DNA of 64,000 nucleotides, taken from the IMG/VR virus record IMGVR_UViG_3300046167_000801. One strand, written 5' to 3'. Positions 32,555 through 49,692 of the stretch are shown here, piece by piece. A program made the translations under genes and the position numbers. Numbering within the stretch: the stretch's first letter is position 1; every line of letters starts with the position of its first letter. A model generated the notes under the pieces. It did no database searches and was not told the origin of the DNA. It was given only the letters and a program-made list of their open reading frames with translations. The stretch is from a virus (Duplodnaviria > Caudoviricetes).

Positions 32555-33289
32555 ATGGAGAACATAGGTTTCGGAATTATGTGCTTCGGTGATGATAAAT
32601 ACTTCAAAGGAGCAAAGGATATTATAGACAACCTCACTAAGATGGGGTTTCCTTGTTATGTACTTACCGATAATGAAAACCACTTTTTAGAGAAGTATTG
32701 GGGGAGGATAACCATAGTTCCTTATAAGAGAACATACAAATCATATTATGATAAGGTTCTTTTAGTAAAAGAAATTCATAGAGTTCACGACGTATGTATT
32801 TTATTAGATGCCGACTTATACGTCAAAGATTACAATTTATTTGAGAGATTCAGAAATTACAACTTCAAAGACGGTGTTTCATATATAGATACCTTATGGA
32901 ATCATAGTGCAAAATTTAAAACTGTAGGTGATATCCCAATGCAGGGAGATGAATGGTTAGAGTATAAAAATTATGCTAAATCGTTATATCCTAATATAGA
33001 TAACTTAGAAACACTTTGGGAATATTTTATTGTATTCAATAAAAGTGGTTTTAAAACTAATGATTTTTTTAAATCATATGAGAAATTACAAATAGTAAAA
33101 GAATATTGTGATTTAAGGTACAATAAAGATGTTTCGGGTGCTGGTGAAGGGGTATCCGTGTCCATTGCATGTAAATTGAATCAAATACCCATACAAAAAG
33201 ATTTAAAATTGGTTTCATTAACAAGTAATGTATTAAAACCCATCACAAGACATACTCCAAGTAGAGAAATACCTCATCACTTAAAATGA
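32555..33289 (+). CDS. Putative GT-A fold glycosyltransferase (244 aa)
   Basis: YVLTDN, KVLLVKE and ILLDAD (DxD) arrangement typical of GT6/GT8-like enzymes. Confidence 0.6.
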   Translation: MENIGFGIMCFGDDKYFKGAKDIIDNLTKMGFPCYVLTDNENHFLEKYWGRITIVPYKRTYKSYYDKVLLVKEIHRVHDVCILLDADLYVKDYNLFERFRNYNFKDGVSYIDTLWNHSAKFKTVGDIPMQGDEWLEYKNYAKSLYPNIDNLETLWEYFIVFNKSGFKTNDFFKSYEKLQIVKEYCDLRYNKDVSGAGEGVSVSIACKLNQIPIQKDLKLVSLTSNVLKPITRHTPSREIPHHLK

Positions 33290-34011
33290 TAACTAACCAA
33301 AATTACATAGAGTCCAATATAACTACAGATAATGGTGAAAAACTACCTTTTCTGTGGACACATGGTGCAACTAACAGTCATTTGGGTGATGGGATTGTTG
33401 TTTACTCCATGATACAACACATGAGATATAAAAATTGTGTTTGTATTGGAACGGGGGGTGGTTACATTCCGAGAATAATGACACAAGCAAGAATCGATCT
33501 ACATAAACAAGGAATTTTTGAAGGTAACCCCACGTATAGTTGGGGTGATATTGGAACAACATATGTTGTTGATCCTTGTAATGGTGTTGGTGGTGATAGT
33601 AATATATGTGATATGGAAGGTTTTTATCAGAAGACCTTCTTCCCAAGATTCATAAAGGAGACATCAGAAAAAGCGTATTATGATTTTTTTGTTAGAGAAG
33701 ATATCATGATTGATTTACTTTTTATTGATGGTGACCATTCGTACGAAGGTGTGAAGAAAGATTTTGATCTGTACTCAAAAAGGTTAAACCCCAACGGTTT
33801 AATAATGGTGCACGATAGTGATTCTTCATATTCCGAAACTTTAATTATATCTGAAGATTCTAAAAAAGATTTCTTCCCCTTCGATGGTCCTTCCAAGTTA
33901 GTAGAAGAGTTAAAAAATAACGATGAGTGGGTAGTAATGGACTTATTTAATTTCGGAAACATAAAAGATAAACCTTCCTCAACAGGAATAACAATAATTA
34001 AGAGAAAATGA
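33286..34011 (+). CDS. Class I SAM-dependent methyltransferase, Methyltransf_24-like (241 aa)
   Basis: CIGTGGGY motif I and IDLLFIDGDHSYEGVKKDF...LNPNGLIMVHD. Confidence 0.85.
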   Translation: MITNQNYIESNITTDNGEKLPFLWTHGATNSHLGDGIVVYSMIQHMRYKNCVCIGTGGGYIPRIMTQARIDLHKQGIFEGNPTYSWGDIGTTYVVDPCNGVGGDSNICDMEGFYQKTFFPRFIKETSEKAYYDFFVREDIMIDLLFIDGDHSYEGVKKDFDLYSKRLNPNGLIMVHDSDSSYSETLIISEDSKKDFFPFDGPSKLVEELKNNDEWVVMDLFNFGNIKDKPSSTGITIIKRK

Positions 34012-34862
34012 TAAGATTATTATGTGTTTTGGGTCATGGACATGAGTTATTACCCCATTTTATTGAACATTACAGTAAACATGTAGATGAATTACAATTT
34101 GTCATATATGAATCTGAAGCATCATCAAGAATACTAAGTAGGTCAAAACCAATAATTGAAAAATACGATAATTGTAAAATAGTAAAGGTGGTAAGAGATC
34201 GTGTTTTCGATTGGGAAAAAGTAACCATTCTCTATAATATGATTAAATCAAAGAAAAAGAATGATTGGTGGGTTATTGCAGATATAGATGAATTCCACGT
34301 ATATCCTTACAGTAACTTACGTGATATGATTAAAGAATGTGATGAAAATTTATGGTCGGTAGTTAGAGGTGGTTTTATAGATAGGGTCGGACCTAAAGGT
34401 GAGTTCCCTAAATTAGAAAGTTCGACACCCATATTTGAACAATTCCCATACGCAGGTTTTTTTAGGTATCCTATGAGTAATGCATGTCCCAACAAGATAT
34501 GTGTGGTAAAAGGTAATATTGAAATAACTAATGGTCAACATTATGCGAATATAGATGGTCATACCACTTGGAGGTGGCAAGGATGGACACATCCAATGAT
34601 TGCCCCATATAAAGAACATTCCGTACAAGTACACCATTTTAAATGGGATGAAACCTGTAAGAGTCGTATTAAAAAAGTGGTAGATGTTAACGAACCGTAC
34701 GCATATTCTAAAGAATATTTAAAACTTTATGATGAATTGAGAAAAACGAACTTCATAGTTAATCTTAAAAATAAAGACTACCTATTTTTAAAGTCAAGTA
34801 AACCAATCTACAGTTCATATAAACATTGGGATAAATTAATAAGAAAAATAATAAGTATATAA
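34008..34862 (+). CDS. GT2-like glycosyltransferase (284 aa)
   Basis: LLPHFIEHY, WWVIADIDEF and VHHFKW motifs. Confidence 0.75.
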   Translation: MIRLLCVLGHGHELLPHFIEHYSKHVDELQFVIYESEASSRILSRSKPIIEKYDNCKIVKVVRDRVFDWEKVTILYNMIKSKKKNDWWVIADIDEFHVYPYSNLRDMIKECDENLWSVVRGGFIDRVGPKGEFPKLESSTPIFEQFPYAGFFRYPMSNACPNKICVVKGNIEITNGQHYANIDGHTTWRWQGWTHPMIAPYKEHSVQVHHFKWDETCKSRIKKVVDVNEPYAYSKEYLKLYDELRKTNFIVNLKNKDYLFLKSSKPIYSSYKHWDKLIRKIISI

Positions 34863-34864
34863 TC

Positions 34865-35092
34865 ATGGCAAAAAAACAAATAAAAACAAATATATCTTTT
34901 GAAGAAGAAAGATTAATCTTAGAAGAAAGAAAAGTTAAATCGTTAGAAAAAATTGCAAATACTTTGGATGCACTAACAATATGGTTTGAAGAAATAGACA
35001 AATCGGGTTGGGATGAAAGAATCCAATATTATATGCACGAATGGCATAAACACACTATACAAGATAATGACGAAGACGAAGAAGAAGAATAA
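34865..35092 (+). CDS. Small acidic hypothetical protein (75 aa)
   Basis: Helical ORF ending DNDEDEEEE; overlaps the next gene by 26 nt. Confidence 0.6.
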   Translation: MAKKQIKTNISFEEERLILEERKVKSLEKIANTLDALTIWFEEIDKSGWDERIQYYMHEWHKHTIQDNDEDEEEE

Positions 35093-36491
35093 GATAGCGG
35101 TCATAGTCCCATACCGAGATAGGTATAGACAATTATTAAAATTTAAAGAAAAGATTGGTGAGTACTTGAGTGAAAACGGTATTGATTATGTTTTAATAGT
35201 GGTAGAACAGGATGATGCTAAATTATTTAATAGAGGTAAATTATTAAATATAGGATATAAAGAGGCAGTAAAATCAAATTGCAATTATGTGGTTTTTCAT
35301 GACATAGATATGATACCATTGAAAGTCGATTATTCATATTCGGATGTACCAATACACTTAGCCACTGATTTCTTATCTGAAGATAAAACCTTTAAGAGGG
35401 AGTTATATGATCAATATTTTGGGGGTGTTACCATATTTCCAATAGAGTCGTTTGAAATTATCAATGGTTACTCTAATGAATATTGGGGATGGGGTTTTGA
35501 AGATGACGATCTCTTCAAAAGATGTGTTGACAAGGGTATTCCGTATGATTTAAAATATGTAAATACACAAGGAGGTCCAAACTCGGCAATTAAATTTAAT
35601 GGTATGAACGCTTATTCTGAGGGATATGTAGATATCGATACAAGTGAAGATGATTTAACTATTATGGTTACAATCGACCCTGATGGAATTGTGTGTGATA
35701 CTGATCAATCGTACGATAGATATACCGCACTCTCTATTCCTAAATTAGATTTAACCATTAGTTACGATTCTTTTAGAAGATATAAGGTTTTAATGAAAGA
35801 TAATAATGATTGGTGTTATGTTGACAGTAAAATTGAAACCAACAGAAAAACAACTTTAGTTGTAACACTTAGTGTGGAAAGAAAGATCCTAACTATGTAC
35901 CAAGATTCCAAAGAGGTTGGGTCTATGAAATTTTCAAAGACTATACCTAAATGCATCAAAAAAGAGTTGTTTGTCGGATCAACTAATAAAGAAAAAGATT
36001 TATTTAAAGGTATTATATCACAGGTTGCGATTTATAATAAAATATTGAAATCGAAAGAAATAGAAGAAATATCAACCAACGAAAAGTACTCATTAACAAT
36101 GGATTTTGGCAAGTATGGATCTTCTCATGCTTTACGTCACTATTTCGATATGAAGTACATAAGTGAATATAGGGTCATGGATTTAGTCGATAGGGAAAAT
36201 TACTTACAATTAGAAAAATGTGAACTAGTACATTATACTTATGATATTGAACATATAATAAAGGTACCATTTAGGAGAACATCTTATTTTGAGATGTTAC
36301 CTCATGAGACCACCGGATATAAAAACGGTGTGTGGTCAGATATTAATATACGTTATAATCAACTTAGGTTTCATAACGAAATGGAAAAAGGGTTTAGAGA
36401 CCCTAATAAAGACGGTCTTTCTAATTTAGATTTTAAAATATGGAACAGGACCTCAAAAAATAATCAAATACATATAAATGTTGGGATATGA
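35067..36491 (+). CDS. GT7 (beta-1,4-galactosyltransferase-like) glycosyltransferase with inserted LamG domain (474 aa from ATG 35067)
   Basis: IAVIVPYRDR, FNRGKLLNIG, FHDID, YFGGV, NGYSNEYWGWGFEDDDL; a LamG-like insert follows (IKFNG...FKGIISQVAIYNKIL); GT7 tail DGLSNLDF...HINV. Confidence 0.85.
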   Translation: MTKTKKKNKIAVIVPYRDRYRQLLKFKEKIGEYLSENGIDYVLIVVEQDDAKLFNRGKLLNIGYKEAVKSNCNYVVFHDIDMIPLKVDYSYSDVPIHLATDFLSEDKTFKRELYDQYFGGVTIFPIESFEIINGYSNEYWGWGFEDDDLFKRCVDKGIPYDLKYVNTQGGPNSAIKFNGMNAYSEGYVDIDTSEDDLTIMVTIDPDGIVCDTDQSYDRYTALSIPKLDLTISYDSFRRYKVLMKDNNDWCYVDSKIETNRKTTLVVTLSVERKILTMYQDSKEVGSMKFSKTIPKCIKKELFVGSTNKEKDLFKGIISQVAIYNKILKSKEIEEISTNEKYSLTMDFGKYGSSHALRHYFDMKYISEYRVMDLVDRENYLQLEKCELVHYTYDIEHIIKVPFRRTSYFEMLPHETTGYKNGVWSDINIRYNQLRFHNEMEKGFRDPNKDGLSNLDFKIWNRTSKNNQIHINVGI

Positions 36492-37873
36492 GTCATAAAT
36501 TAGGAATATGCATACCATATAGAAACAGGGAATCACACTTGAATGAGTTATTACCTAAATTAGATAAACATCTAAATAAACAGGGTATAGAGTACTGTGT
36601 TTATGTTGGGCATCAAGTAGATGATAAACTATTCAATAGAGGTGCAATGAAGAATATTGCTGCTGTTAAAGCAATGGAAGACGGTTGTGATTATGTTGCA
36701 TTTCATGATGTTGATATGTTACCTCATGATGAGACATGTGACTATTCATATCCCTATGATACTCCGACACATATTGCAACAAAATTATCAAAATACTCAT
36801 GGTCTATGGGTTATGAACAATATTTTGGAGGTGTCGTACTTTTCAATAAAGAACATTTAGTACAAACAAATGGGTATTCTAACAACTATTGGGATTGGGG
36901 ACAAGAGGATGATGATTTATTTTGGAGATGTTTCTATGAAGGACATTCTGATAGAAAAATATATGAAACTATTGAAGATAAAGAAGTACATCTATTTAAT
37001 GGTGAAACATCATCATTAACTTTTAAATCACATAGAGGTTTAACCACACCTTTGTTTAGAGATCACACCATCTCTATATTAGTTTCACCTGAACAACAAC
37101 CTGAAGTTGTACCAATATGGTTAGTGGGTGATGAAGAAAGAAAATTTATAGAATATCCCATACTAAGAAAAGACGGAAGTTGGACTTGGGGGATATCGTT
37201 TAACAATTCAAGAGCATTATCGATACTGAATCACGATAAGATAAACAATCCGTTATATCACTGGTCAAAGGCGGTAGAGAATAAATGGACATGGTTCACC
37301 GTTTCATATAAACACGATGAACAAAAGTTGTACATATTTTCAAATAATAAATTAGTTTCTAATAATGGAGATGTTCTTAAATCTAAACCCATTGATCTAC
37401 CAGATAAAATAAGATCTCACTCATTGATGGGTGATTTTAATATTGGTAGATGTAATCACCAAAATACCAATTTTAAGGGTAAGGTTGCAGAATTAAAAAT
37501 ATACGATAGATTCTTCGACACATTTGAAGAGTGTAAATTAAATAATGAAAATATCATATACGACATGAACAATGATGAAGATAGTATAAAAAATGATGTG
37601 GAATTACAGAAAGAGACTATCGAAATTGATGAAAGTATCTTACCATATAGACGAGAAGGTAAATTTTATTGTTTACCACATTTAGATGAAGGTTTAGTGA
37701 ATGGAAGGTGGGCTAAAGGTGAAACTACCGCAAGAAATGAAAAAAGATTTGTCACTGAAATGCAACAAGGTAAGTTAGATTATAAAACTGATGGTATTAA
37801 TAGTTTAAAATATGAACTAGTTGAAACTATCCAACATACAGAAAAATGTAAAATCTTTAATGTTAAGTTATGA
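36488..37873 (+). CDS. Second GT7-like glycosyltransferase with inserted LamG domain (461 aa)
   Basis: ICIPYRNR, FNRGAMKNIA, FHDVD, YFGGV, NGYSNNYWDWGQEDDDL; insert LFNGE...WTWFTVSY...FKGKVAELKIYD; tail DGINSLKY...FNV. Confidence 0.85.
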   Translation: MSHKLGICIPYRNRESHLNELLPKLDKHLNKQGIEYCVYVGHQVDDKLFNRGAMKNIAAVKAMEDGCDYVAFHDVDMLPHDETCDYSYPYDTPTHIATKLSKYSWSMGYEQYFGGVVLFNKEHLVQTNGYSNNYWDWGQEDDDLFWRCFYEGHSDRKIYETIEDKEVHLFNGETSSLTFKSHRGLTTPLFRDHTISILVSPEQQPEVVPIWLVGDEERKFIEYPILRKDGSWTWGISFNNSRALSILNHDKINNPLYHWSKAVENKWTWFTVSYKHDEQKLYIFSNNKLVSNNGDVLKSKPIDLPDKIRSHSLMGDFNIGRCNHQNTNFKGKVAELKIYDRFFDTFEECKLNNENIIYDMNNDEDSIKNDVELQKETIEIDESILPYRREGKFYCLPHLDEGLVNGRWAKGETTARNEKRFVTEMQQGKLDYKTDGINSLKYELVETIQHTEKCKIFNVKL

Positions 37874-39246
37874 GTGAGTTACTATCCAACATAAAGAAAC
37901 AACTAGACCAAAAGGGTAGAGGTTTTTGTGCTGCAAAGTGGACACAAGTAACTATACATTTAGGTACGGGGTTAACACATTCATGTCACCACCCCAACCC
38001 ACATAAAATTGGTTTAGCCGAATTAAGAAATAACCCATCGGCACTACACAACACACAACACAAAAAGAGGGCTCGTAAACAAATGTTGGAAGGTGAAAGA
38101 CCTAGTGAGTGTGATTATTGTTGGAAGATCGAGGACAACTCAAACTCATTCTCAGACAGGGTATTTAAATCTTCAGAGTCATGGTCAGCACCATACATAG
38201 AAGAAATTAAAGAATACGGATGGAGAGGTAATTATAATCCAAAATATGTTGAGGTTTCTTTCTCAAACGTATGTAATTTTAAATGTGCGTATTGTGGACC
38301 ACAATTCTCATCGAAATGGGTGAATGAGATAAATAAAAATGGTGCTTATAAATTATCGTATGATTATAATGATACGGAACATTTAAAAAAGAAAAATGAA
38401 ATGCCAATTCATCATAATGATTTTAATCCATATGTTGAGGCGTTTTGGAAATGGTTCCCTGATTTGTATCCTGACCTACACACATTTAGGGTGACGGGAG
38501 GTGAACCACTACTATCATCAGACACTTTTAAGTTATTGGAATATATACAAAATAACCACGAAGTAAATCCTAACCTATCGTTAGCCATAAACACAAATTT
38601 AGGTGTGAGTGATGATATCATTGATAGGTTCATCAATATCATAGAAGATTTAACAGAAAACAATAAAGTAAAGGAGTTTATTGTTTTTACATCAATCGAA
38701 GCAACCAAGTCACAAGCAGAATATCTGAGGTATGGGTTAGATACTAGTAAATTTTGGACTAATGTTGAGAAAATACTTAGTAAGTTACCAAAAGTGACTA
38801 TTAATATAATGTCAACATACAACGCATTATCTGTATTCACATATGATGATTTAATTGATAGAGTATTTGATCTGAAAAGAAAATACCAAAATAATGAAAG
38901 GTATTGGGTGTCTGCAATACAATTAGACACATCATACATACGACACCCTAAACACCTGTCAGTTAAAATTTTAGAGGATAATCATAAAGAATTGATTTTA
39001 CAATCAGCTAAAAAAATGTTATATTATGGTATGAAGGAATTCACTCATGATAATTATGGGTTTTCTACCGTAGAAATACAAAAATTAAAACGAACATATG
39101 ATTACGCAATTAGTACGGACGACTTCGACGTTGAAACCAACAGGAAGGATTTCGTTAAATTCGTTGATCAGTACGATAAAAGACGAAAATTAAATTTTTT
39201 GGACACATTTCCACAACTAAAAGAGTTCTATGTTAAAAATCAATAA
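37870..39246 (+). CDS. Radical SAM protein with N-terminal Cys-rich twitch/SPASM-like domain (458 aa)
   Basis: CNFKCAYC cluster motif; VTGGEPL; N-terminal CAAKW...SCHH...CDYCW. Confidence 0.88.
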   Translation: MSELLSNIKKQLDQKGRGFCAAKWTQVTIHLGTGLTHSCHHPNPHKIGLAELRNNPSALHNTQHKKRARKQMLEGERPSECDYCWKIEDNSNSFSDRVFKSSESWSAPYIEEIKEYGWRGNYNPKYVEVSFSNVCNFKCAYCGPQFSSKWVNEINKNGAYKLSYDYNDTEHLKKKNEMPIHHNDFNPYVEAFWKWFPDLYPDLHTFRVTGGEPLLSSDTFKLLEYIQNNHEVNPNLSLAINTNLGVSDDIIDRFINIIEDLTENNKVKEFIVFTSIEATKSQAEYLRYGLDTSKFWTNVEKILSKLPKVTINIMSTYNALSVFTYDDLIDRVFDLKRKYQNNERYWVSAIQLDTSYIRHPKHLSVKILEDNHKELILQSAKKMLYYGMKEFTHDNYGFSTVEIQKLKRTYDYAISTDDFDVETNRKDFVKFVDQYDKRRKLNFLDTFPQLKEFYVKNQ

Positions 39247-39814
39247 AGGGGAACCTTGGATATTTTGGCCTAATAGTATTTGTGAAACATTTCCTGAAGA
39301 TGCGGGAAACAAAATACTATCCAATAAATTAAATTACACCTTAGAAGTTGATTTTGTATTAACAGATGAGAGTGATTTGGAGAAAACTCTATTTGCATTA
39401 GTACCAAGGTATATGGGTTTAAATATTAACCCTACTAATATCTCATTTACAATCACTTTTCAAGATGATGTAGAATATTATACCTTAGAACATATGGTGG
39501 TCCCTAATCAACTAACTAATATTAAATTAAATCACATTTATAAAGATAGGTTTGAATTGTTTTTAAATGGTGAAGTAATATTAAATGTTGATTTGAGTGA
39601 AAGGGAATTAGGTTTAGACCACTCACCTCACATAATTTTTGGTGCGGGTAACTTCCCTAAGAATAAAACGAATACAAATTATACTGAATTTGAGTTTCAT
39701 AAGTTTAAACTAATAACAGATGGTAAATTAATATCTGAACATACGTTTGAGGAATTTATACATAACAAATCAGTAGATATTTCAGGGAATTGTAATTTCC
39801 TACATAAAATTTAA
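39230..39814 (+). CDS. LamG-like beta-sandwich protein (194 aa)
   Basis: FELFLNGEV, IIFGAGN and a C-terminal VDISGNCN closing strand resemble the LamG fold. Confidence 0.5.
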   Translation: MLKINKGEPWIFWPNSICETFPEDAGNKILSNKLNYTLEVDFVLTDESDLEKTLFALVPRYMGLNINPTNISFTITFQDDVEYYTLEHMVVPNQLTNIKLNHIYKDRFELFLNGEVILNVDLSERELGLDHSPHIIFGAGNFPKNKTNTNYTEFEFHKFKLITDGKLISEHTFEEFIHNKSVDISGNCNFLHKI

Positions 39815-39831
39815 AATTATAATATAAAATA

Positions 39832-41400
39832 ATGAGTATAGATGCAAGAAAACCCGGTGAAACATTTCTCGAATATCGAGATCGGGTAATTAACAAAATT
39901 TCACCTTCATTTTGTGGGGCTAAATGGTATAATGCAACGATATGGTTAGGTAACGGGGCAACAACAAGTTGTCATCACCCACCGTCACATAAGATACCAC
40001 TAACAGATCTTGAAAAATCGTATAAAGCAATCCATAATACCACATATAAGAAGGCGGTACGTAAACAAATGTTGGAGGGTGTACGTCCAAAAGAATGTGA
40101 TTACTGTTGGAGAATAGAAGATTTGGGGAAAGATATGATTTCTGATAGAACACATAAATCAGTCATTTACACTGATAAAGAATTGGTTGATGCCAAGGAA
40201 AAGTTAGGTGCAAGTGAAGATGTGGATCTAAGGACTTTAGAAATTTCGTTTGATCCTGTATGTAACTTTGCTTGTTCATATTGTAACTCATCGTTTTCCA
40301 CAACATGGCAAAAAGACATCAATAAGAATGGTCCCTACCAAAATCTGGTAAGTGATGGTGCGGGTGCATTTCAACATAATGGTGACCATGCAATGCCTTA
40401 TGGAAAATTAAATTTAAAAAACCCCTATGTCGACGCATTTTGGAAATGGTGGGAGGGTGAATTACAACACTCATTACGAGAGTTAAGGGTAACAGGTGGT
40501 GAACCATCAATGTCCCGTAATTTTTGGAAATTAATGAAGTGGTGGGAAACAAACCAAAACTCAGAAATTGATTTTGCAATAAACTCTAACTTGGGTATAA
40601 GTGATAAAATAATGGACGCACTTATTAAGTATAGTCACAATGTTAAATCATTTCACATTTATACAAGTTGTGAAGCGTATGGAACTCATGCGGAATATAT
40701 TAGAGACGGATTAGATTGGAGGAAGTGGTTAAAAAATGTAGATAGAATATTAGATGAGGGAAATATTAAATCACTTAATATGATGTTAACAATAAACTCA
40801 TTATGTCTTTTTAGTTTACCTGAGTTTATGGATGAAATGATGAAAATTAAAAGAAGACATAAATCCTCATCACCTGTATGTTCTTTTAACATTCTAAGAT
40901 TCCCGTCATTTCAATCAATTGTGACATTACCAATGCAAATGAGATTAGAAAGGGCGGATGCACTCGAAAAATGGATCGAGGACAATTACACTGATGGTTC
41001 TAACTATTTTATGGATTGGGAGCGTGATGGTATGGTCCGTTTAATCAACTATCTAAGAAATACTGAGGAAGGTCATGACCATACATCATCTATAGAGACT
41101 AGAGAACGGGATTTTAAATCATTTTACAAACAATATGATAAACGTAGAGGTAAAAATTTCTTAGAAACGTTCCCTATGTTAAAAAAGTGGTGGGATTTGA
41201 TACCTGACACAAATATCAAGGAGTTGGAGACAACATTAAATGGTGATGATACTAAACATAATAAATATGTTAATGAAGTACTCACCATCGCTAAGGAAGA
41301 AGGTTGGGTTTTAGAACCTCAGTGGGCTAATCCTGGTGCACAAGATTATGTTGAATCCCCTGAGGAGATAAACATACTTGACTACATTAAAAAATTATAA
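39832..41400 (+). CDS. Second radical SAM protein, paralogue of 37870 (522 aa)
   Basis: CNFACSYC; VTGGEP; N-terminal CGAKW...SCHHP...CDYCW; shared YD.RR..NFL.TFP tail. Confidence 0.88.
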   Translation: MSIDARKPGETFLEYRDRVINKISPSFCGAKWYNATIWLGNGATTSCHHPPSHKIPLTDLEKSYKAIHNTTYKKAVRKQMLEGVRPKECDYCWRIEDLGKDMISDRTHKSVIYTDKELVDAKEKLGASEDVDLRTLEISFDPVCNFACSYCNSSFSTTWQKDINKNGPYQNLVSDGAGAFQHNGDHAMPYGKLNLKNPYVDAFWKWWEGELQHSLRELRVTGGEPSMSRNFWKLMKWWETNQNSEIDFAINSNLGISDKIMDALIKYSHNVKSFHIYTSCEAYGTHAEYIRDGLDWRKWLKNVDRILDEGNIKSLNMMLTINSLCLFSLPEFMDEMMKIKRRHKSSSPVCSFNILRFPSFQSIVTLPMQMRLERADALEKWIEDNYTDGSNYFMDWERDGMVRLINYLRNTEEGHDHTSSIETRERDFKSFYKQYDKRRGKNFLETFPMLKKWWDLIPDTNIKELETTLNGDDTKHNKYVNEVLTIAKEEGWVLEPQWANPGAQDYVESPEEINILDYIKKL

Positions 41401-41406
41401 GATTTA

Positions 41407-41414
41407 TATTTATA
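41407..41414 (+). promoter_or_regulatory. TATTTATA putative late element
   Basis: Intergenic, 15 nt before ATG 41430. Confidence 0.4.
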
Positions 41415-41429
41415 ATAAAAACTCTAAGA

Positions 41430-42224
41430 ATGGTTGAGGGGAAAAAAGTATTATTAGCAAGTGGGTGTAGTTTCACATTTGAAGATTGGAATTGGCCGGG
41501 ACATTTGGCACAAAAATTAAATTTAAATGTGATGAACAAAGGAATGGCATCACAAGGTAATGGACTAATTTCTCGTAAGGTTATTTCAGGATTAGATGAG
41601 TTACTTAAAACATATAAGAAAGAAGAAATATTAGTTGGTATAATGTGGTCGGGAGTTAATAGACATGAGTATTATACTGAAGACACAGAAGATGTCAAAA
41701 CATGGGGATTTTTTAGTAAAGATGATAATACTATAAAAAATCCAACCGATGTTATTGATGGTAAGTTTAATTGGAGAATATTAAACATTAATTGGGAAAG
41801 TAAAGAAGTTAAATCATACTATGAAGTCTTTCATAATGAAATATCATCCATGGTCTTTACTATCGAACACATATTAAGAATTCAGTGGTACTTAGACAGT
41901 TTGGGTATTGATTATTTTATGTCAACTTATATGGATATATTTAAATGGGGACACTTAAAATATCACCCTGAAATAGTACCTCTTTTCTCTAAGGTAAATC
42001 TAGATAAATTTCTACCTATTGACGGTTGTATGGAATGGGTTCAAAATAACTATGATGAGTTAGGGATGCCAATGTCATTTGACAAGGATGGTAATCGAGG
42101 TGTACACCCAACATCCTATGGTCATGAAAAATTTGCTGAAGAGGTAATTATACCTCATTTGAGTTCGAATAACATAAAAACTAAAAATTCGGATAATATA
42201 AAAACTAAACGAAAATTAATTTAA
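41430..42224 (+). CDS. SGNH/GDSL-like hydrolase or acyltransferase (264 aa)
   Basis: LLASGCSFT block I, G...GN block II and C-terminal HPT..GH. Confidence 0.7.
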   Translation: MVEGKKVLLASGCSFTFEDWNWPGHLAQKLNLNVMNKGMASQGNGLISRKVISGLDELLKTYKKEEILVGIMWSGVNRHEYYTEDTEDVKTWGFFSKDDNTIKNPTDVIDGKFNWRILNINWESKEVKSYYEVFHNEISSMVFTIEHILRIQWYLDSLGIDYFMSTYMDIFKWGHLKYHPEIVPLFSKVNLDKFLPIDGCMEWVQNNYDELGMPMSFDKDGNRGVHPTSYGHEKFAEEVIIPHLSSNNIKTKNSDNIKTKRKLI

Positions 42225-42227
42225 TTT

Positions 42228-43220: not shown

Positions 43221-43221
43221 A

Positions 43222-44700
43222 ATGAATCTAGTTTATAATGAAATATTTGTGTACGACACTCAAGGTCGACCTGAGTTTGTAAGTTCAAACCTCCCATCAT
43301 ATAATATTCACCCATGGCACACCCACCCACTACTAACTGAACACGATCGTGATGGTAATTATGAATTTATTAATATATTAAGTGATAAGTTAGGTATTGT
43401 ATTTCCCTATAAAAGAACTGGTGATGAGAGTAAAGAGATAATGGATCACTTTCACTGCTTGAGGAGTCAAAGTTTTGAGGTTTTTTTAGATCATGACGTT
43501 TTTAGACACAAAATTTATACGTTAGATGATATAAAAACGGATAATCCCGATATCAAATATATATACCCAATTGTTTTATACAATAACGAATTGTTTGATG
43601 CGTATAGTACGGTTGATATAGATCCTAAAATAATCGAGGACTCGAAAAGTGGTAAATGTAAAATATGTTTTTTACAACCTACAGAAGGTTTCTTTGGTCA
43701 AGATGACCATAATTATGTGTGGTTTGATAATTTATCTAAAAAATATGGTTTAGATAAAACTAATCTCTATATGATTACAACTAATTTAATTGCAAAAAAA
43801 CGTAAAGAGTTTTTAGAGACGAATGGTCACATAACAAAAGATTCATATACTATATTAGATTACACATATTTTGGTTGTAATCTATGGTTTCATGAGCCAG
43901 GTCAAATAACTGACCCTAAATGTGAGATAGGTGGAAGGGAGAAACTATCTGATTTTATCAAATCATCACTTACAAAAAGAAAAAAATACCATTTCTTAAA
44001 TTTCAATAGGGTGCCCAAACTACATAGGGTTTTAATTTACGGATTATTAAAAAGTCACGATATTTTTGAGGGTAAATTCATTTCATCCTTGGGTGGACTT
44101 CGTACAAATAATCCAGATGAGTATTTGAATTGGGTTGATCAAAGTGTACCTAAGGAGTATAATGATAAATGGAAAAACACCATTAAAAATTACTACAGGA
44201 ATCACGATGCGAGAGAACACTATTGGTACGATGAACCTGACTTGGAAAATAATAAGGCAATGAATTTAAATATGAAAGCACATACGGATTCATTTGTAAA
44301 TATCGTGTCTGAATCATTAACTCATGAAACGACGGTATTTTTCTCAGAGAAAATATACAAACCCATATTTGTTGCTCAACCATTTATATTGGTGGGTAAC
44401 CCCAGGTCGTTAGAGGTTTTACGAAGTCAAGGATACAAGACATTTTCTAAATGGTGGGATGAGAGTTATGATGAAGAACTTGACTACTATAAAAGGATGA
44501 ATAAAATTTTTGATGTAATGAAAGAAATTGCGTCTTGGGATATGGAAAAGTGTTTTAAGATAACTCAGGAGATGTTACCTAATCTATTACATAACTTCAA
44601 TGTCTTAATGAAGGGTCAAACACTACAAGATCTATTTAAAGAAATAGACCCTTCACACACAAAAAAACAATATACAAAAACCCATAAAACGATAATTTAA
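43222..44700 (+). CDS. Putative GT-B-like glycosyltransferase, paralogue of the preceding gene (492 aa)
   Basis: FLNFNRVPKLHR; FVNIVSES...FFSEKIYKPI...QPFILVG...GYKTFSKWWDESYD. Confidence 0.5.
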   Translation: MNLVYNEIFVYDTQGRPEFVSSNLPSYNIHPWHTHPLLTEHDRDGNYEFINILSDKLGIVFPYKRTGDESKEIMDHFHCLRSQSFEVFLDHDVFRHKIYTLDDIKTDNPDIKYIYPIVLYNNELFDAYSTVDIDPKIIEDSKSGKCKICFLQPTEGFFGQDDHNYVWFDNLSKKYGLDKTNLYMITTNLIAKKRKEFLETNGHITKDSYTILDYTYFGCNLWFHEPGQITDPKCEIGGREKLSDFIKSSLTKRKKYHFLNFNRVPKLHRVLIYGLLKSHDIFEGKFISSLGGLRTNNPDEYLNWVDQSVPKEYNDKWKNTIKNYYRNHDAREHYWYDEPDLENNKAMNLNMKAHTDSFVNIVSESLTHETTVFFSEKIYKPIFVAQPFILVGNPRSLEVLRSQGYKTFSKWWDESYDEELDYYKRMNKIFDVMKEIASWDMEKCFKITQEMLPNLLHNFNVLMKGQTLQDLFKEIDPSHTKKQYTKTHKTII

Positions 44701-44714
44701 AGACATTAAAACAC

Positions 44715-44743
44715 TTTACTAATACGTCATTTTATTATACATT
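44715..44743 (+). promoter_or_regulatory. sigma70-like promoter TTTACT-N17-TACATT
   Basis: -35 at 44715-44720, 17-nt spacer, -10 at 44738-44743, upstream of ugd. Confidence 0.45.
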
Positions 44744-44767
44744 ATATGTATTAAATACATGTAAAAT

Positions 44768-45769
44768 ATGAACGTAGGATTTATTGGAGTTGGTAAACTC
44801 GGAAAAGACGCGGCCGAAGTAATGGCGGAGAAACATAACGTCGTTGGTTATGACATAACTGAAGTACAACCAGATAACTTTAGAATGGTCCCAACAATTA
44901 AGGATGTTTGTGAAGGTGGTAGAGAACTAATTTTCATTGCTGTTCCAACACCACACCATCCAGACTATGATGGAAGATACCCAACATCACATTTAGAAAA
45001 TAAGGATTTTAATTACGACATAGTGAAAGAAGTTCTAACGGAGGTAAATAAATATGTCTCTAAAGATCAACTCATTGTCTTAATCTCAACAGTCCTACCT
45101 GGTACTATTAGACGAGAATTTATTGACTTAATACCAAATGGTAGGTTTATATATAATCCATATCTAATTGCAATGGGTACTGTAAAATGGGATATGGTAA
45201 ATCCTGAAATGATTATCATCGGAACAGAAGATGGTTCCGAAACGGGAGACGCGAAATTACTATTAGACTTTTATAAAACATTTATTACTGAAGGTACGAG
45301 GTATGAACTTGGTACGTGGGATGAAGCCGAAGGAATTAAAATATTTTACAATACGTTTATATCGACCAAAGTCGCACTGGTTAACATGATTCAAGACGTT
45401 GCTGAAAAATCGGGTAACATTAATACTGATGTTATTACAGGAGCACTTGAAAGATCCACATATAGAATTTTAGGACCCGCATATATGAAAGCAGGAATGG
45501 GAGATGGTGGAGGATGTCATCCTCGTGATAATATCGCATTAAGATACATGGCCCAAGAATTGAATTTAGGGTATGACTTATTTGATGCGATTATGTTAGC
45601 AAGAGAAGTACAAGCAAAAAACATTGCAACTAAGTTAGTTGTTGAATCAAATAAACGTAACCTACCGATTATTATATTAGGTCAATCATATAAACCTGAC
45701 GTAGAGTATTTAGATGGTTCTTCATCTATTCTTGTTGGTCATTACTGTGAATCTTCGTATGGTAGGTAA
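44768..45769 (+). CDS. ugd: UDP-glucose/GDP-mannose dehydrogenase family protein, N-terminal 333 aa (frameshifted near the end)
   Basis: Rossmann GFIGVGKLG, IFIAVPTP, STVLPGT, catalytic GMGDGGGCHPRD and YKPD motifs; stops prematurely at 45767-45769. Confidence 0.88.
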   Translation: MNVGFIGVGKLGKDAAEVMAEKHNVVGYDITEVQPDNFRMVPTIKDVCEGGRELIFIAVPTPHHPDYDGRYPTSHLENKDFNYDIVKEVLTEVNKYVSKDQLIVLISTVLPGTIRREFIDLIPNGRFIYNPYLIAMGTVKWDMVNPEMIIIGTEDGSETGDAKLLLDFYKTFITEGTRYELGTWDEAEGIKIFYNTFISTKVALVNMIQDVAEKSGNINTDVITGALERSTYRILGPAYMKAGMGDGGGCHPRDNIALRYMAQELNLGYDLFDAIMLAREVQAKNIATKLVVESNKRNLPIIILGQSYKPDVEYLDGSSSILVGHYCESSYGR

Positions 45770-45947
45770 ATACAAAGTACAGTATGATTTAGAGACCCCA
45801 ATTAAAGGAATTTACTTATTGGGACATATGGGTAAACACCATGATTATGATTTCCCTGATGGGTCGGTAGTGGTGGATCCGTGGAGATCATATAAGACAG
45901 AAAAAGATATTAAGGTTATTCATTACGGAAATACTCGAATTGGATAA
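45761..45947 (+). pseudogene. ugd: C-terminal remainder of the dehydrogenase in the +1 frame
   Basis: After GGTAGGTA (45761-45768) the +1 frame reads GKYKVQYD...VVVDPWR...IHYG, matching the end of the UDP-binding domain. Confidence 0.7.
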
Positions 45948-45948
45948 T

Positions 45949-46626
45949 ATGAAAAATAAGATTTGGTTCTTTGGTGACAGTTTCACTTATGGTGATGGGT
46001 GTGTTGAAGATCGACCACCTAATGGGGAGTATTATAAACTAAAACCACATGGTGTGTTATGGAGAAAAGGTGTTGCGGACCATTTTAATATGAATGAAAT
46101 TAATAGATCGATAGGTGGGGCATCTAATGATTGGATAATTAATTCATTAATCGACGAGTTACTAAACATACAACCTAATGACATTGTTGTGGTCGGTTTA
46201 TCATGGTCGGAAAGGTTTCAACTGATCGATAAGAAAAGTGGTAAATATATGAATTTTTTACCTCAGGATTTTATTAACCATACAAGTGAGGACACCCCCT
46301 TAGTACTTGATGAGGATGATAGTAGATATAATGTGGAATTATTTAATTCATTGAAAACGGTTTTGGTTGAGTATAGAGTACAACACGGTGAAATATTAAA
46401 AAAATATCAGTATGAACAAGCGTTAAAAATATTAAAAAAATTAGAACAATTTGGTGTTAGATTTTTACTATGGGATCTTAAAGATGTTCAGTTTCGTTAT
46501 GAATCAATTGATCATGAAATGGGTAATGGTGATTACCATTGGTCATGGAAAGGACATGAGGGTTGGATGTTAAAATGTATTGAGTTATTAGAAAATAATA
46601 AAAATGAATATATGTGTAAAGATTAA
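45949..46626 (+). CDS. SGNH/GDSL-like protein (225 aa from ATG 45949)
   Basis: IWFFGDSFTYG block I, GGASND block II and DYHWSWKGH C-terminal motif. Confidence 0.72.
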   Translation: MKNKIWFFGDSFTYGDGCVEDRPPNGEYYKLKPHGVLWRKGVADHFNMNEINRSIGGASNDWIINSLIDELLNIQPNDIVVVGLSWSERFQLIDKKSGKYMNFLPQDFINHTSEDTPLVLDEDDSRYNVELFNSLKTVLVEYRVQHGEILKKYQYEQALKILKKLEQFGVRFLLWDLKDVQFRYESIDHEMGNGDYHWSWKGHEGWMLKCIELLENNKNEYMCKD

Positions 46627-46641
46627 ATAACACAAACTATT

Positions 46642-48303
46642 ATGTATGCAATCGGGATCTCATCTTATTATCACGACTCGTCTTTATGTTTATTTAAAGA
46701 CGGGAAATTAATATTCGCGTGTGAAGAAGAGAAATTCACGGGAGTAAAACATGACTATAGTTTTCCTAAGAAAGTACTAAACTATGTTACAAAAAAGTAT
46801 TCTTTAACAAAGGAAAATGTAGAGGTGGTTTGTTTTTATGAAGATGTTGAGTTGAAAAGTCAAAGAGTTAAAGAATACTCAAAAAAACAATTACTAACCA
46901 AACCCTTATTATCAATTAGAAGAGTATGGGAATCTTATAGAAATAGACGAGAGTTAAAAAAACTACTACCTAATATTTCTGATAATATTTTTTTCTCAAA
47001 ACATCATCATTCACACTTATATTATTCATCATTTAGTTCTCCTTATAAAACCTCCGCAGTAGTTTCTATTGATGGTGTAGGAGAATACGACACAACAACC
47101 ATATCCAAATACGATGGGGGGGTTTTAGATGTTGAAACCATTTCATCTTACCCACATTCTTTAGGTTTGTTTTATTCTGCAATGACCTCATTCTTAGGGT
47201 TTAGACCAAACGAGGGTGAATACAAAGTTATGGGATTAACATCTTATGGGAATAAAACTAAGTTGGTTGGGAAGGTCAGTAAATTAATAAAATTCGAAAA
47301 CGGAGAAATAAAATGTAATTTAAAATATTTTAATTGGCATAAGTCAGATAAAATTATGTACAACTATGAGTTATCTGAATTATTGGGTTTGTTACCAAGG
47401 ACTCCTGACGAAAAAATAAAAAAAATACATAAGGATTTAGCATATGCGGTTCAACATGTTTATGAAAAGGTGTTGTTTGATCTTTTGGATTATGTTGGTA
47501 AAAAGTATCGGACTAGTAATTTATGTTTGGGTGGTGGATGTGCGTATAATGGGTTGGCGAATGGTAAGATATATCGAAACACTGGATTTAGGAAGGTATG
47601 GGTACCACCAGCACCATCTGATGCAGGGTCCTCTATAGGTTCTGTAATTAATTATTATATTAACAACGGGACAAATGTTGAGATACCCAATACCCCGTTT
47701 TTGGGTCCATCGTACACCGTAAATTCAAAATCCAAGAAACAGTTGGGTGATAGGAAGACCATGTATCTTAGTAATAAAAATTTATATAGAATAGTTGCCA
47801 AACAAATAAGAAAGGGTAAAGTCGTCGGTTGGTTTAGGAATGAAATAGAATTTGGTGCAAGAGCATTGGGGAATAGATCAATTTTAGCCGACCCTACAAA
47901 CCCTAAAATGAAGGATAGAATAAATAAAATGGTAAAAAGGAGGGAAGGATTTAGACCTTTTGCACCTATGGTAACTAAAGAAAGACAACATGAATATTTT
48001 ATAATGAATGACGATTTGAGATATATGAATCAAGTTGTTGAGGTTCGTGACCGATATAGGGATGTTCTTGTCTCCACAACCCATGTTGACGGTACCGCAC
48101 GAGTACAAACAGTTTATCATGATAATGACATACATAATCTTTTAAGGGAATTCGAGTTTTTAACGTCACACCCTGTACTGTTAAACACATCATTCAACAT
48201 TAAAGATAAGACAATGGTCTTAACCCCTAAAGACGCATTAGATACTTTTGACTCAACAGACATTGATGTATTAGTCTTAAATAATATCGTAATTTTTAAA
48301 TAA
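46642..48303 (+). CDS. Carbamoyltransferase, NodU/CmcH/TobZ family (553 aa)
   Basis: HDSS, EEEKF, HHHSH, IDGVGE, GEYKVMGL, GGCAYN, DAG, EFGARALGNRS, RPFAP, HVDGTARVQT and LNTSFN motifs in the canonical order. Confidence 0.93.
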   Translation: MYAIGISSYYHDSSLCLFKDGKLIFACEEEKFTGVKHDYSFPKKVLNYVTKKYSLTKENVEVVCFYEDVELKSQRVKEYSKKQLLTKPLLSIRRVWESYRNRRELKKLLPNISDNIFFSKHHHSHLYYSSFSSPYKTSAVVSIDGVGEYDTTTISKYDGGVLDVETISSYPHSLGLFYSAMTSFLGFRPNEGEYKVMGLTSYGNKTKLVGKVSKLIKFENGEIKCNLKYFNWHKSDKIMYNYELSELLGLLPRTPDEKIKKIHKDLAYAVQHVYEKVLFDLLDYVGKKYRTSNLCLGGGCAYNGLANGKIYRNTGFRKVWVPPAPSDAGSSIGSVINYYINNGTNVEIPNTPFLGPSYTVNSKSKKQLGDRKTMYLSNKNLYRIVAKQIRKGKVVGWFRNEIEFGARALGNRSILADPTNPKMKDRINKMVKRREGFRPFAPMVTKERQHEYFIMNDDLRYMNQVVEVRDRYRDVLVSTTHVDGTARVQTVYHDNDIHNLLREFEFLTSHPVLLNTSFNIKDKTMVLTPKDALDTFDSTDIDVLVLNNIVIFK

Positions 48304-48422
48304 TGTTTAGAAAAATAATTAGATGGTTTAAGGACCGAAAAGAAAAGAAAAAAAGAGAGTTAAGATATAAGGAAAAAATAGAGAGGTTAAAAAAACAAGA
48401 CCCATTTACCTATAAGCATTAG
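48303..48422 (+). CDS. Small basic peptide ending DPFTYKH (39 aa), not in the ORF track
   Basis: TAATG-coupled to the carbamoyltransferase: MFRKIIRWFKDRKEKKKRELRYKEKIERLKKQDPFTYKH. Confidence 0.7.
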   Translation: MFRKIIRWFKDRKEKKKRELRYKEKIERLKKQDPFTYKH

Positions 48423-48423
48423 T

Positions 48424-49692
48424 ATGAAAGTAATTCACACATACATAGACAAACAAAACTTAATATGGAAAGAGTTATTATACACTCAATATTTAAGTGC
48501 CATTTTAGCCAAAAAACATTATGGAAGTATAAGTTTCTACGGTGATGAAATTTCATGTAAACAAATAAAAGATATTGGCATACCTTACGATGAGATAAAT
48601 CATGACATACTCGTCAAAGGAGATACGGACACGTGGAGTATTCCAAAAATAAAGGTATATGAATCAATAAAAGAACCTTTTCTTCATATTGATACCGACA
48701 CATTACTCTTTAATAAAATATTATTGGATAGATATGATAGTGACTATATTTTTAGTCACAGGGATATGTTTATTGATGGTAAGGGTGAGACACTCAAGAA
48801 CCTTTTTATTTATTGGTTTTGTAATTTGGATGAAAAGGAGATGGATCAAAATAAATACCCTTTTAGATCCTTAGTGAAAGACAGTAACAATAAGATACCT
48901 AAAATAATTTTAGAAAAAACGTCAAAAGATATGGATTACCCCCATGTCGATAGAACTTACAGTAAATTGTTCTTCGATTTGATGGAAAATATGAGTGATA
49001 AGGTCTTTGATGAAGTTCACTTTGAATCTATACCAAACATGAACATTACGTACGTAAGAAACCATGAAACCTTTGGTAAAGTATGTAGGGAAACCCTAAA
49101 TCATTATTATTCAAATAAAAAAAGGATAGACGATGAGGTTTACGGTTCTTGTTATATAGAACAACTAATGTTACACACAAATTTAAGATTGCATGATAAA
49201 AAATATAAAAAATCAAGTAAGAAAGGGAACAATTTCGTATTTGATGATATACCCTTATCAATCGTAGACGCTCACAATAACGTACCTGATATTAATAGTG
49301 TAAAGTTTCCATTTAAACTAAAAGTAAACAATAATGATCATTTTAAATTTGATTGTTGCGACCGCGTGATAATATCCCCTCTATCTAAAACCAAAAAAAA
49401 ACCTGATGACTCCTATGAATTAATTATTAATGATATTGATGACATTAAAAATTATTTTGATCATGAGTTTAATGGTTTTTTTCATACCACATATATGAAA
49501 TGGTATGATATTATACAAGTTATCATAATTGACAAACTAAGAAAGGAGATCGGAGATGACGAGATAAGGAGAATACATGACTATTTTAGAAAACATTACC
49601 CTTCAAGAGGATTACCAACTACTTCCAACGGAGAAAGACTCTACACAAGACTTACCGGGTTTAAATTTCATGGAACCACATCATTAATTTAG
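48424..49692 (+). CDS. DUF6734-like protein, putative nucleotide-sugar transferase fold (422 aa)
   Basis: SAILAKKHYG.I.FY.D, WSIPKI.VY....PFLHIDTD (DxD) and IEQ motifs. Confidence 0.55.
   Translation: MKVIHTYIDKQNLIWKELLYTQYLSAILAKKHYGSISFYGDEISCKQIKDIGIPYDEINHDILVKGDTDTWSIPKIKVYESIKEPFLHIDTDTLLFNKILLDRYDSDYIFSHRDMFIDGKGETLKNLFIYWFCNLDEKEMDQNKYPFRSLVKDSNNKIPKIILEKTSKDMDYPHVDRTYSKLFFDLMENMSDKVFDEVHFESIPNMNITYVRNHETFGKVCRETLNHYYSNKKRIDDEVYGSCYIEQLMLHTNLRLHDKKYKKSSKKGNNFVFDDIPLSIVDAHNNVPDINSVKFPFKLKVNNNDHFKFDCCDRVIISPLSKTKKKPDDSYELIINDIDDIKNYFDHEFNGFFHTTYMKWYDIIQVIIIDKLRKEIGDDEIRRIHDYFRKHYPSRGLPTTSNGERLYTRLTGFKFHGTTSLI

Follow-up and report, generated by a model that had tools for sequence, protein, structure and literature searches.

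Virus-encoded glycosylation clusters serve chlorovirus PBCV-1 and the fibrils of Mimivirus. To our knowledge, glycosylation of the virion by a phage's own enzymes is known from a few cases only. In mycobacteriophages, capsid and tail-tube proteins are glycosylated by phage-encoded glycosyltransferases (Freeman 2023, as cited in PMC12619734). The glycan clusters of jumbo cyanophages have been read as host-surface systems (PMC7824862), and moraphages predicted to infect Flavobacteriia have four core orthogroups of glycosyltransferases (PMC12619734). The published phage pathways that glycosylate or carbamoylate 5-hydroxymethylcytosine (5hmC) in DNA cluster with a TET/5mYOX or Asp-type thymidylate-synthase homologue (PMC8670742; bioRxiv 10.1101/2023.12.21.572611). 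Here we describe a locus of an uncultured large marine phage, IMG/VR record IMGVR_UViG_3300046167_000801, of which a stretch of 64,000 nt (the window) was analysed. Judged by its sequence, the locus is a 21-kb run of sugar-transferring and sugar-editing genes with soluble products, placed between two giant tail-fibre genes. The block is one copy of a widespread, uncharacterised jumbo-phage module located in the baseplate/tail-fibre region.

Organisation and conservation of the block

From 28415 to 60115 every open reading frame (ORF) lies on the + strand and the genes are tightly packed. A preliminary description of positions 32555-49692 had counted up to seven glycosyltransferase (GT)-like genes, a methyltransferase, two radical S-adenosylmethionine (SAM) proteins, two SGNH-like proteins, a nucleotide-sugar dehydrogenase and a carbamoyltransferase, flanked by fibres rich in Ser, Thr and Asn. 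All of these genes were recovered, with seven GT-like genes inside that interval and an eighth upstream (28858-29505; Table 1), and the fibres have the composition claimed for them (25% Ser plus Thr, 8% Asn) together with matches to tail-fibre PHROGs. The inventory is now extended by LamG modules, by the NF033640 identity of the radical SAM (rSAM) enzymes, by a frameshift in the Ugd-type dehydrogenase gene and by two conserved small ORFs. No protein of the window contains a transmembrane (TM)-like segment or a signal peptide. A megablast search of the 17-kb region against cultured phages gave zero matches.

An IMG/VR scan with rSAM enzyme B as the query yielded at least 596 confirmed stretches; the best 80 of these, with 1618 ORFs in total, are the related loci to which the counts of loci below refer. 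About 40 of the 80 (type A, 35-70% identity) share the order methyltransferase-GT2-(75-aa ORF)-GT7-GT7-rSAM-LamG-rSAM, after which come zero to several divergent rSAM paralogues together with GT-B, Ugd and SGNH-like genes and, in some loci, a carbamoyltransferase. The remaining loci (type B) hold the rSAM pair, often a carbamoyltransferase, and other upstream families; Pfam searches with the latter (f3, f4, f6, f9, f10, f16) gave no match, and hhalign gave no relation to the families of the block. DUF6734 genes stand at the head of the block in ~19 related loci.

A close relative (L128 / G001:C1, L162; 248,233 bp, from a Flavobacteriaceae metagenome-assembled genome) keeps the order fibre-block-fibre of the window; the contig is probably that of a phage whose genome was binned together with its host's. 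In it the LamG-ended paralogues described below have moved to a position after the second fibre, and DUF6734 is absent. The same contig contains a canonical ThyA gene beside a short MetK-like SAM synthetase, which would supply rSAM and methyltransferase enzymes. Identity between the two phages is 98% for Ugd, 90-94% for the rSAM enzymes (94% for enzyme B), 70% for the carbamoyltransferase and 55-72% for the transferases, and the fibres are rearranged, with only their N-termini conserved (the first ~530 aa in fibre 2). The precursor and radical enzymes are thus conserved and the transferases and fibres diverged, as one would expect if the product were a glycan that is exposed and diversifying.

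Flanking regions were inspected in nine other contigs, namely the 248-kb close relative, five type-A contigs and three type-B genomes, and the association of the cluster with fibre or baseplate modules is kept in all nine. In the type-A contigs, fibre-like ORFs adjoin the block (G005, G007, G008) or lie ~12 kb off (G006, G009). In the three type-B genomes, of which two are rated complete, the genes immediately upstream of the block encode a baseplate wedge protein (phrog_10646) and a giant virion protein (phrog_10938). The only cultured carrier found is the Ralstonia jumbo phage RsoM2USA, whose mini-module (L081, 123.4-129.1 kb) reads DUF6071-rSAM-DUF6071-peptide-DUF6071-carbamoyltransferase. 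Its annotated genes are all 'hypothetical', the peptide (36 aa, DPFIYK) is unannotated, and there is no recognised GT within it. Literature searches found nothing specific on tail-fibre glycosylation and no paper characterising the NF033640 rSAM family, in phages or otherwise, the GT7-LamG enzymes or the micropeptide.

Table 1. Features of the block and of its flanks in the window (positions in the 64,000-nt stretch).
Feature	Position	Strand	Evidence and remarks
Giant tail fibre 1, 2934 aa	15202..24006	+	phrog_22284, phrog_9729; S 11%, T 14%, N 8%, G 12%; TATTTAT motifs upstream (15059, 15123)
Three LamG-ended paralogues and a 110-aa ORF	24007..28130 (24007-25179, 25519-26751, 26751-28130)	+	phrog_8510, virion structural protein
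148-aa protein, first gene after TATTTAT motif (28388)	28415..28861	+	78% identical in close relative, directly before the GT there; no family match
GT-A glycosyltransferase, Anp1/GT62-like	28858..29505	+	Pfam Anp1 E 6.5e-8; phrog_1574 E 3e-22; 87% identical in close relative
Three further LamG-ended paralogues	29523..32516 (29523-30197; 30310-31017; 31014-32516)	+	Laminin_G_3 E 4e-16, 1.4e-12; phrog_8510
GT-A-like protein, 244 aa (GT8/nucleotide-diphospho-sugar-transferase-like)	32555..33289	+	Atlas feature neighbours only, score 0.96: GT8, Nucleotid_trans, GT6 clusters
Class I SAM methyltransferase (Methyltransf_24)	33286..34011	+	Pfam E 2.8e-12; same position in 37-39/80 related loci
GT2-type glycosyltransferase (Glyco_tranf_2_4)	34008..34862	+	Pfam 29.4 bits, cut-off 27.5; in 40 related loci
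Conserved 75-aa ORF, acidic tail	34865..35092	+	tblastn: 40 related loci and the close relative, each time between GT2 and GT7, E down to 3e-28
GT7a, beta-4-Gal(NAc)T-like, inserted LamG	35013..36491	+	Glyco_transf_7N E 4e-21, 7C E 1e-17, Laminin_G_3 E 2.8e-9
GT7b, second GT7, inserted LamG	36488..37873	+	Pfam GT7 domains; human/bovine B4GalT1 at E 1.7e-33
N-terminal-twitch rSAM enzyme A	37870..39246	+	NF033640 E 1.7e-101, 340 bits, cut-off 170; CNFKCAYC and four N-terminal Cys
Free-standing LamG/ConA-like jelly-roll protein, 194 aa	39230..39814	+	AlphaFold pLDDT 88; Foldseek: lectin-like jelly rolls, neurexin LNS, pentraxin
N-terminal-twitch rSAM enzyme B	39832..41400	+	NF033640 E 2.7e-95, 320 bits, cut-off 170
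DUF6071, SGNH-like, block I GCSFT	41430..42224	+	Pfam E 1.5e-9; TATTTAT motif 15 nt upstream
GT-B-like protein, 330 aa	42228..43220	+	BLAST cluster with 43222-44700; invariant E/K/Y-D columns common to both
GT-B glycosyltransferase-like, 492 aa, distantly GT10-like	43222..44700	+	AlphaFold pTM 0.76; Foldseek; Atlas lead to GT10
UDP-glucose/GDP-mannose dehydrogenase-family (Ugd-type)	44768..45944	+	Pfam N and central domains; phrog_9148 E 6e-92
GDSL/SGNH-like, block I GDSFT	45940..46626	+	Weak Pfam GDSL match, E 0.002, below cut-off
TobZ/NodU-type O-carbamoyltransferase	46642..48303	+	Carbam_trans_N E 1e-57 (196 bits), Carbam_trans_C E 6e-61 (205 bits); phrog_1601 E 3e-111
Basic micropeptide, 39 aa, C-terminus KKQDPFTYKH	48303..48422	+	Start overlaps carbamoyltransferase stop codon
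DUF6734 protein, possibly GT-A-like	48424..49692	+	Pfam E 1.3e-10; Atlas: DUF6734 clusters, then GT8-like at 0.90 (weak)
Giant tail fibre 2, 3443 aa	49784..60115	+	phrog_30742; TATTTAT motif 23 nt upstream

Glycosyltransferases and lectin-like modules

Both GT7 proteins score far over the Pfam cut-offs of 27 bits (7N) and 23 bits (7C), GT7a with 75.4 and 63.9 bits and GT7b with 75.9 and 65.9 bits. Aligned to B4GalT1, their translations contain the DxD and WGxEDDD motifs, as FHDIDMIP and WGWGFEDDD in GT7a and as FHDVDMLP and WDWGQEDDD in GT7b. The catalytic domain is contiguous in neither, since Laminin_G_3 splits both, and the metagenomic homologues listed are split likewise. Despite the split, both proteins belong to the GT7 fold, as a variant architecture. 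The GT7-LamG family comprises at least 1676 clusters at 90% identity in metagenomes, none of which has a functional name (unnamed or 'hypothetical protein'). The true start of GT7a may be at 35067.

LamG modules are inserted beside the acceptor site in both GT7 enzymes and recur as a free-standing protein between the two rSAM genes, a position held by that protein in 28 related loci and taken over in some others by a small protein, f24. By hhalign, the GT7 insert matches the free LamG protein (probability 93.9%), f24 (99.1%) and six virion-like LamG paralogues (96.8%). A direct comparison of the free LamG protein with the six virion paralogues gave no signal, so that the GT7 insert is the sole link between them. 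A complex prediction for rSAM enzyme B and the free LamG protein returned a score of 0.00, which counts neither way.

The two GT-B-like genes (42228 and 43222) belong to a large, virus-specific family with 68 members in 39 related loci. PDB sequence and profile searches with the 492-aa family gave no match; in a Foldseek search with the model of 43222-44700, 49 of the 50 listed matches are GT-B enzymes, the fucosyltransferases 2nzw and 7yro included. A Pfam search with the 244-aa protein at 32555-33289 gave no match, and homologues of it occur in two related loci (L005 and L008).

Radical SAM enzymes, SGNH-like proteins and the dehydrogenase

Across 14 divergent rSAM paralogues, C28, C47, C89, C92 and C144/C148/C151 are unchanged. 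The family forms 425 clusters of 50% identity at E<=1e-30, and the 80 best related loci hold ~330 copies, up to eight of them in tandem. Some representatives (P0121, P0126 and others), with lengths from 950 to 1203 aa, combine two or three fused radical SAM domains in one protein. PDB sequence and profile searches with enzyme B revealed no relative. Cellular homologues were sought in one genome scan with a narrower alignment, the 14-paralogue alignment being too diverse, and were found mainly on Bdellovibrionota chromosomes, where they stand either alone, with GT2 genes on both sides, or in arrays that reach seven copies. Such arrays (L155, L147 and L132) lie amid ordinary chromosomal genes such as ATP synthase and PhoH. 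The DUF6071 (41430) and GDSL-like (45940) proteins of the window are mutually homologous (hhalign probability 97%).

The Ugd-type gene is interrupted by a +1 frameshift near 45756-45762, the frames splitting at 45754 and 45774: residues 1-328 are encoded in one frame and the last 57 in the next (45774-45944). In the close relative the extra base is absent and the gene is intact (393 aa), its product matching PDB UDP-glucose dehydrogenases. Either the copy in the window was inactivated recently, or the extra base is an error of sequencing or assembly. A programmed frameshift was considered and rejected as unsupported, because the relative simply lacks the extra base.

The carbamoyltransferase and two conserved small ORFs

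The carbamoyltransferase finds GdmN, NovN and TobZ in the PDB (E 1e-74 to 1e-57). The micropeptide encoded at its 3' end was sought in six-frame translations of all loci fetched (6.5 million residues). Its signature DPF[ITVL]Y occurs there 26 times, nearly always at the end of a basic ORF of 33-45 aa that lies on the cluster strand beside a carbamoyltransferase. K31, D33, F35 and Y37 are unchanged in 18/18 copies, and the peptide is present in 13 of the 14 related viral loci holding a carbamoyltransferase. Further copies come from the window, the close relative (two), RsoM2USA and five bacterium-binned contigs (the relative's included). No DPF(I/T)Y peptide was found beside the carbamoyltransferases of S-SSM6a, P-SSM2, CM1, HTVC008M and Xp15, all of them phages without this rSAM family, and two type-A contigs (G006 and G009) have the micropeptide without an adjacent carbamoyltransferase. 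The micropeptide is thus conserved and coupled to the carbamoyltransferase; no RRE (RiPP, that is, ribosomally synthesised and post-translationally modified peptide, recognition element) or peptidase was seen, and the linkage to rSAM genes is readable only within the 10-kb flanks of the loci.

Two neighbourhoods of these genes differ from that of the window. In G006 (L179; G006:C1 13606-16626) the genes after the DPFIY peptide encode, in place of a carbamoyltransferase, an APS-kinase-like P-loop protein and a protein of 624 aa that has a Hint domain at its C-terminus. Pelagibacter phage HTVC008M (L198, 128.2-132.3 kb) has the order methyltransferase-carbamoyltransferase-NadE-Ugd-family dehydrogenase, without this rSAM family or the peptide; here the same carbamoyltransferase family lies in a smaller set of sugar-type genes. 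The second small ORF, of 75 aa, has the conserved core LEERKVKALEKIA..LDALT.WFEEIDK..W.ER.QYYL.E.

Fibres, LamG-ended paralogues and a candidate promoter motif

Six paralogues lying in two groups between fibre 1 and position 32516 begin with a common MGI..GP...GLV..D motif and end in a LamG domain, differ strongly in between, and look like interchangeable fibre-tip or adaptor proteins. Translation of the ORF 30235-31017 probably starts not at the GTG (30235) but at the ATG at 30310, which yields the N-terminus of the paralogue type (MGIHLGPN). After fibre 2, at 60127-63525, lie three tandem paralogues of ~375 aa with N-termini MI.EN..(V/I)SGSL, 68-79% identical to three fibre-adjoining genes of IMG/VR contig G005.

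The preliminary description had seen meaning in the many D-S/T-L/I/T triplets of the fibre shafts, on the model of the Bacteroidota O-glycosylation sequon. The triplets D-(S/T)-(A/I/L/V/M/T) number 26 against 22.5 expected from composition in one fibre and 33 against 28.9 in the other (z = 0.8 each), which is chance level. The general O-glycosylation system of Bacteroidota targets exported proteins, and with the triplets at chance and signal peptides missing from the window the argument fails. A scan of both fibres for Pro/Thr/Ser-rich, mucin-like linkers likewise found none.

The window holds 15 copies of TATTTAT[ATC], a motif whose reverse complement is the late-promoter word of T4, TATAAATA; 12 copies are intergenic although intergenic DNA makes up only ~5%. 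The intergenic copies (at 1, 2162, 3898, 8251, 12859, 15059, 15123, 28388, 29512, 41407, 49753 and 61268) stand 3-71 nt before gene starts, or ~95 nt for that at 2162. The motif is likely a phage promoter element. Copies lie upstream of tail genes, of both fibres and of the sub-blocks that begin at 28415, 29523 and 41430, which makes it likely that the block and the fibres are co-expressed. Scans for sigma-70 promoters and for terminators found fewer sites than in shuffled sequence and are hence uninformative.

Proposed pathway and competing explanations

The reading we favour, tentatively, is that the block is expressed late and builds a tailored glycan in the cytoplasm, on a polypeptide that the phage itself encodes and that is probably associated with the fibres. 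As all the enzymes are soluble, a phage-made cytoplasmic acceptor is the simplest target, and the giant fibres or the LamG-ended proteins encoded alongside would be the most likely acceptors. In such a pathway, the Ugd-type dehydrogenase (frameshifted in the window) would supply a nucleotide uronic acid, and seven or eight soluble GTs, of GT-A type (including the two animal-like GT7 enzymes) and of GT-B type (two), would add sugars stepwise from nucleotide sugars without a lipid carrier. The LamG modules may hold the GT7 enzymes and the rSAM pair on the growing glycan or the acceptor. The sugars would be edited by O-methylation (Methyltransf_24), O-carbamoylation (TobZ-like enzyme), acyl editing (SGNH-like proteins) and a radical step (the two rSAM enzymes). 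The pathway of glycan synthesis and decoration put forward in the preliminary description is supported, with a physical, and probably a transcriptional, tie to the fibres; its glycan might lie on fibres or capsid, as had also been proposed. Several observations speak against the glycosylated polypeptide that we favour. A glycan on a virion protein is suggested here only by genomic linkage to fibre and baseplate genes, and the position beside the fibres may reflect merely a variable region of late genes. The fibres show neither an enriched sequon nor mucin-like linkers, and the Ugd copy of the window is frameshifted. The rSAM/SGNH/carbamoyltransferase/micropeptide core of RsoM2USA stands without GTs, and the Bdellovibrionota chromosomal rSAM homologues occur without phage fibres.

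The GT-less core of RsoM2USA favours the main rival, a different product, centred on the DPF(I/T)Y micropeptide. The peptide would be a substrate or scaffold whose Tyr-containing C-terminus is modified by the rSAM enzymes, the DUF6071/SGNH proteins and the carbamoyltransferase, and which variable GT sets then glycosylate. The RsoM2USA mini-module, with its peptide, rSAM, three DUF6071 proteins and carbamoyltransferase, and the absence of the peptide next to the carbamoyltransferases of five cultured phages without this rSAM family make such a product a real possibility, if on balance a doubtful one. The peptide gene itself is real, given how rare its signature is in the translated loci and how regularly it closes a small basic ORF; its invariant K, D, F and Y and its near-constant presence in carbamoyltransferase-holding viral loci point the same way, and twitch/SPASM rSAM enzymes often act on peptides. 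But the block shows no peptidase, RRE domain or exporter, many rSAM-pair loci have no peptide within the 10-kb flanks, and in G006 and G009 the peptide lacks a carbamoyltransferase alongside. The single-copy bacterial rSAM homologues between GT2 genes lack such a peptide too, and the peptide may just as well serve as a small subunit or a regulator. A virus-encoded RiPP-glycoconjugate pathway, in which the micropeptide is remodelled at its Tyr end and then glycosylated by fast-evolving, lectin-guided GTs, is rather unlikely; if it existed, jumbo phages in their hundreds to thousands would make a glycosylated, carbamoylated peptide or peptide-derived compound and use it together with their tail apparatus. 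Remodelling of the host envelope, by soluble GTs acting, on the inner side of the membrane, on undecaprenyl-linked intermediates of the host that host flippases export as altered O-antigen, capsule or glycoprotein glycan, for a superinfection block or a changed surface, is improbable. Peripheral GTs of lipopolysaccharide pathways do likewise lack membrane segments, the transferases diverge fast between the phage and its close relative, and jumbo-cyanophage GT clusters have been interpreted in this way (PMC7824862). However, the window lacks a priming transferase, a flippase, a polymerase, a chain-length regulator and an ABC transporter, and none of these is conserved in the 80 loci, where just five of the 1618 ORFs, all singletons, have at least three TM-like segments; the alternative, which the preliminary description had also raised, is weakened accordingly. 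The position in a late tail module, under the same motif as the fibre genes, would moreover leave little time for a surface change, and the phages that have the block in common, the Ralstonia phage included, differ in their predicted hosts.

A free metabolite, that is, a soluble sugar-derived molecule (aminoglycoside-like, nucleoside-like or a modified nucleotide sugar) aimed at competitors or rewiring host metabolism, is slightly more improbable still. The mixture of rSAM, GT, methyltransferase, TobZ-type and dehydrogenase enzymes resembles the tailoring sets of aminoglycoside and nucleoside antibiotics, the best PDB matches of the carbamoyltransferase are antibiotic enzymes (GdmN, NovN, TobZ), and cyanophage secondary-metabolite clusters with carbamoyltransferases were proposed by Iyer et al. 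(PMC7824862). The block nevertheless has no scaffold-forming enzyme (cyclitol synthase, non-ribosomal peptide synthetase or polyketide synthase), aminotransferase or exporter, seven or eight transferases exceed the usual need of a small molecule, the lectin-like modules inside GTs suggest polymeric or protein substrates, and the linkage to the tail module is constant. Hypermodification of the phage's DNA by the block is unlikely, and a pathway in which the GTs and the carbamoyltransferase decorate 5-hydroxymethyl-pyrimidines is very improbable, in keeping with its lower rank in the preliminary description. In phages, 5hmC can be carbamoylated by TobZ-like enzymes (PMC8670742) and receives diverse glycans from GT-A and GT-B enzymes (bioRxiv 10.1101/2023.12.21.572611), the window contains a DNA methyltransferase gene (4726-5670), and the carbamoyltransferase homologue of Xanthomonas phage Xp15 adjoins thymidylate synthase and dCMP deaminase. 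Yet neither a TET/5mYOX nor an Asp-type thymidylate-synthase homologue is present here, unlike in the published pathways, and a Tet_JBP search of four related records gave no match above cut-off. In the close relative, in G004 and in G002 the ThyA homologues have the sequence PFNIASY and so are of the canonical, dUMP-specific Asn type (E. coli position 177); that of the relative lies 25 kb from the block. G003 (457 kb, rated 100% complete) has the rSAM and carbamoyltransferase module and no ThyA-family gene, and in the MetaGPA study GT-flanked carbamoyltransferases occurred on unmodified contigs (PMC8670742).

If the fibres are indeed decorated, a large, global group of big phages would coat its host-recognition organelles with a self-made, rapidly diversifying and chemically unusual glycan, which would matter for host range, for escape from recognition by hosts or grazers and for the stability of the particle. 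At present the best handle is this block on the chemistry of NF033640, on lectin-bearing animal-type GT7 enzymes and on the micropeptide tied to the carbamoyltransferase, and the cultured carrier RsoM2USA makes it directly testable.

Comparison with known systems

In mycofactocin biosynthesis, an rSAM enzyme acts on the C-terminal Tyr of a peptide, after which a GT2 and a methyltransferase act; HypF, for its part, carbamoylates the C-terminus of HypE. A peptide-centred product of the block could be Tyr-based like the former or involve carbamoylation of the C-terminus like the latter. The block shares with such RiPP logic a small peptide with an invariant Tyr near its C-terminus, twitch-type rSAM enzymes, GTs and a methyltransferase in one block. 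It differs from mycofactocin in having no MftB-like chaperone, peptidase or flavoenzyme, in that the peptide tracks the carbamoyltransferase and in the N-terminal location of the auxiliary cluster; the likeness is one of logic. The rSAM enzymes agree with NCBIfam NF033640 (N_Twi_rSAM) in scores far above cut-off, in the N-terminal four-Cys auxiliary site and in CxxxCxxC; in the block they form a pair that brackets a lectin-like protein. Among TobZ/NodU/CmcH enzymes, which include a phage 5hmC carbamoyltransferase (PMC8670742), the enzyme of the block has the complete two-domain architecture and strong matches to GdmN, NovN and TobZ. Its neighbours, in contrast to those of the DNA-modifying clade, are sugar enzymes and the micropeptide rather than thymidylate synthase, deaminase or MazG.

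The GT7 enzymes have the 7N and 7C domains of B4GalT1/B4GalT7, with DxD and WGxEDDD and a match of E 1.7e-33 over ~150 residues. Unlike these, they have a LamG of ~230 residues that separates the EDDD loop from the His region at the C-terminus, and are soluble, without a stem or TM region. As in mycobacteriophages, PBCV-1 and Mimivirus, soluble viral GTs, nucleotide-sugar enzymes and a methyltransferase lie beside structural genes, without host lipid-carrier machinery. Compared with those virion-glycosylation systems, the block, known from its genes, holds in addition seven to eight GTs, two rSAM enzymes (up to eight per locus in relatives), a TobZ-like enzyme, SGNH-like proteins, LamG modules inside GTs and a micropeptide.

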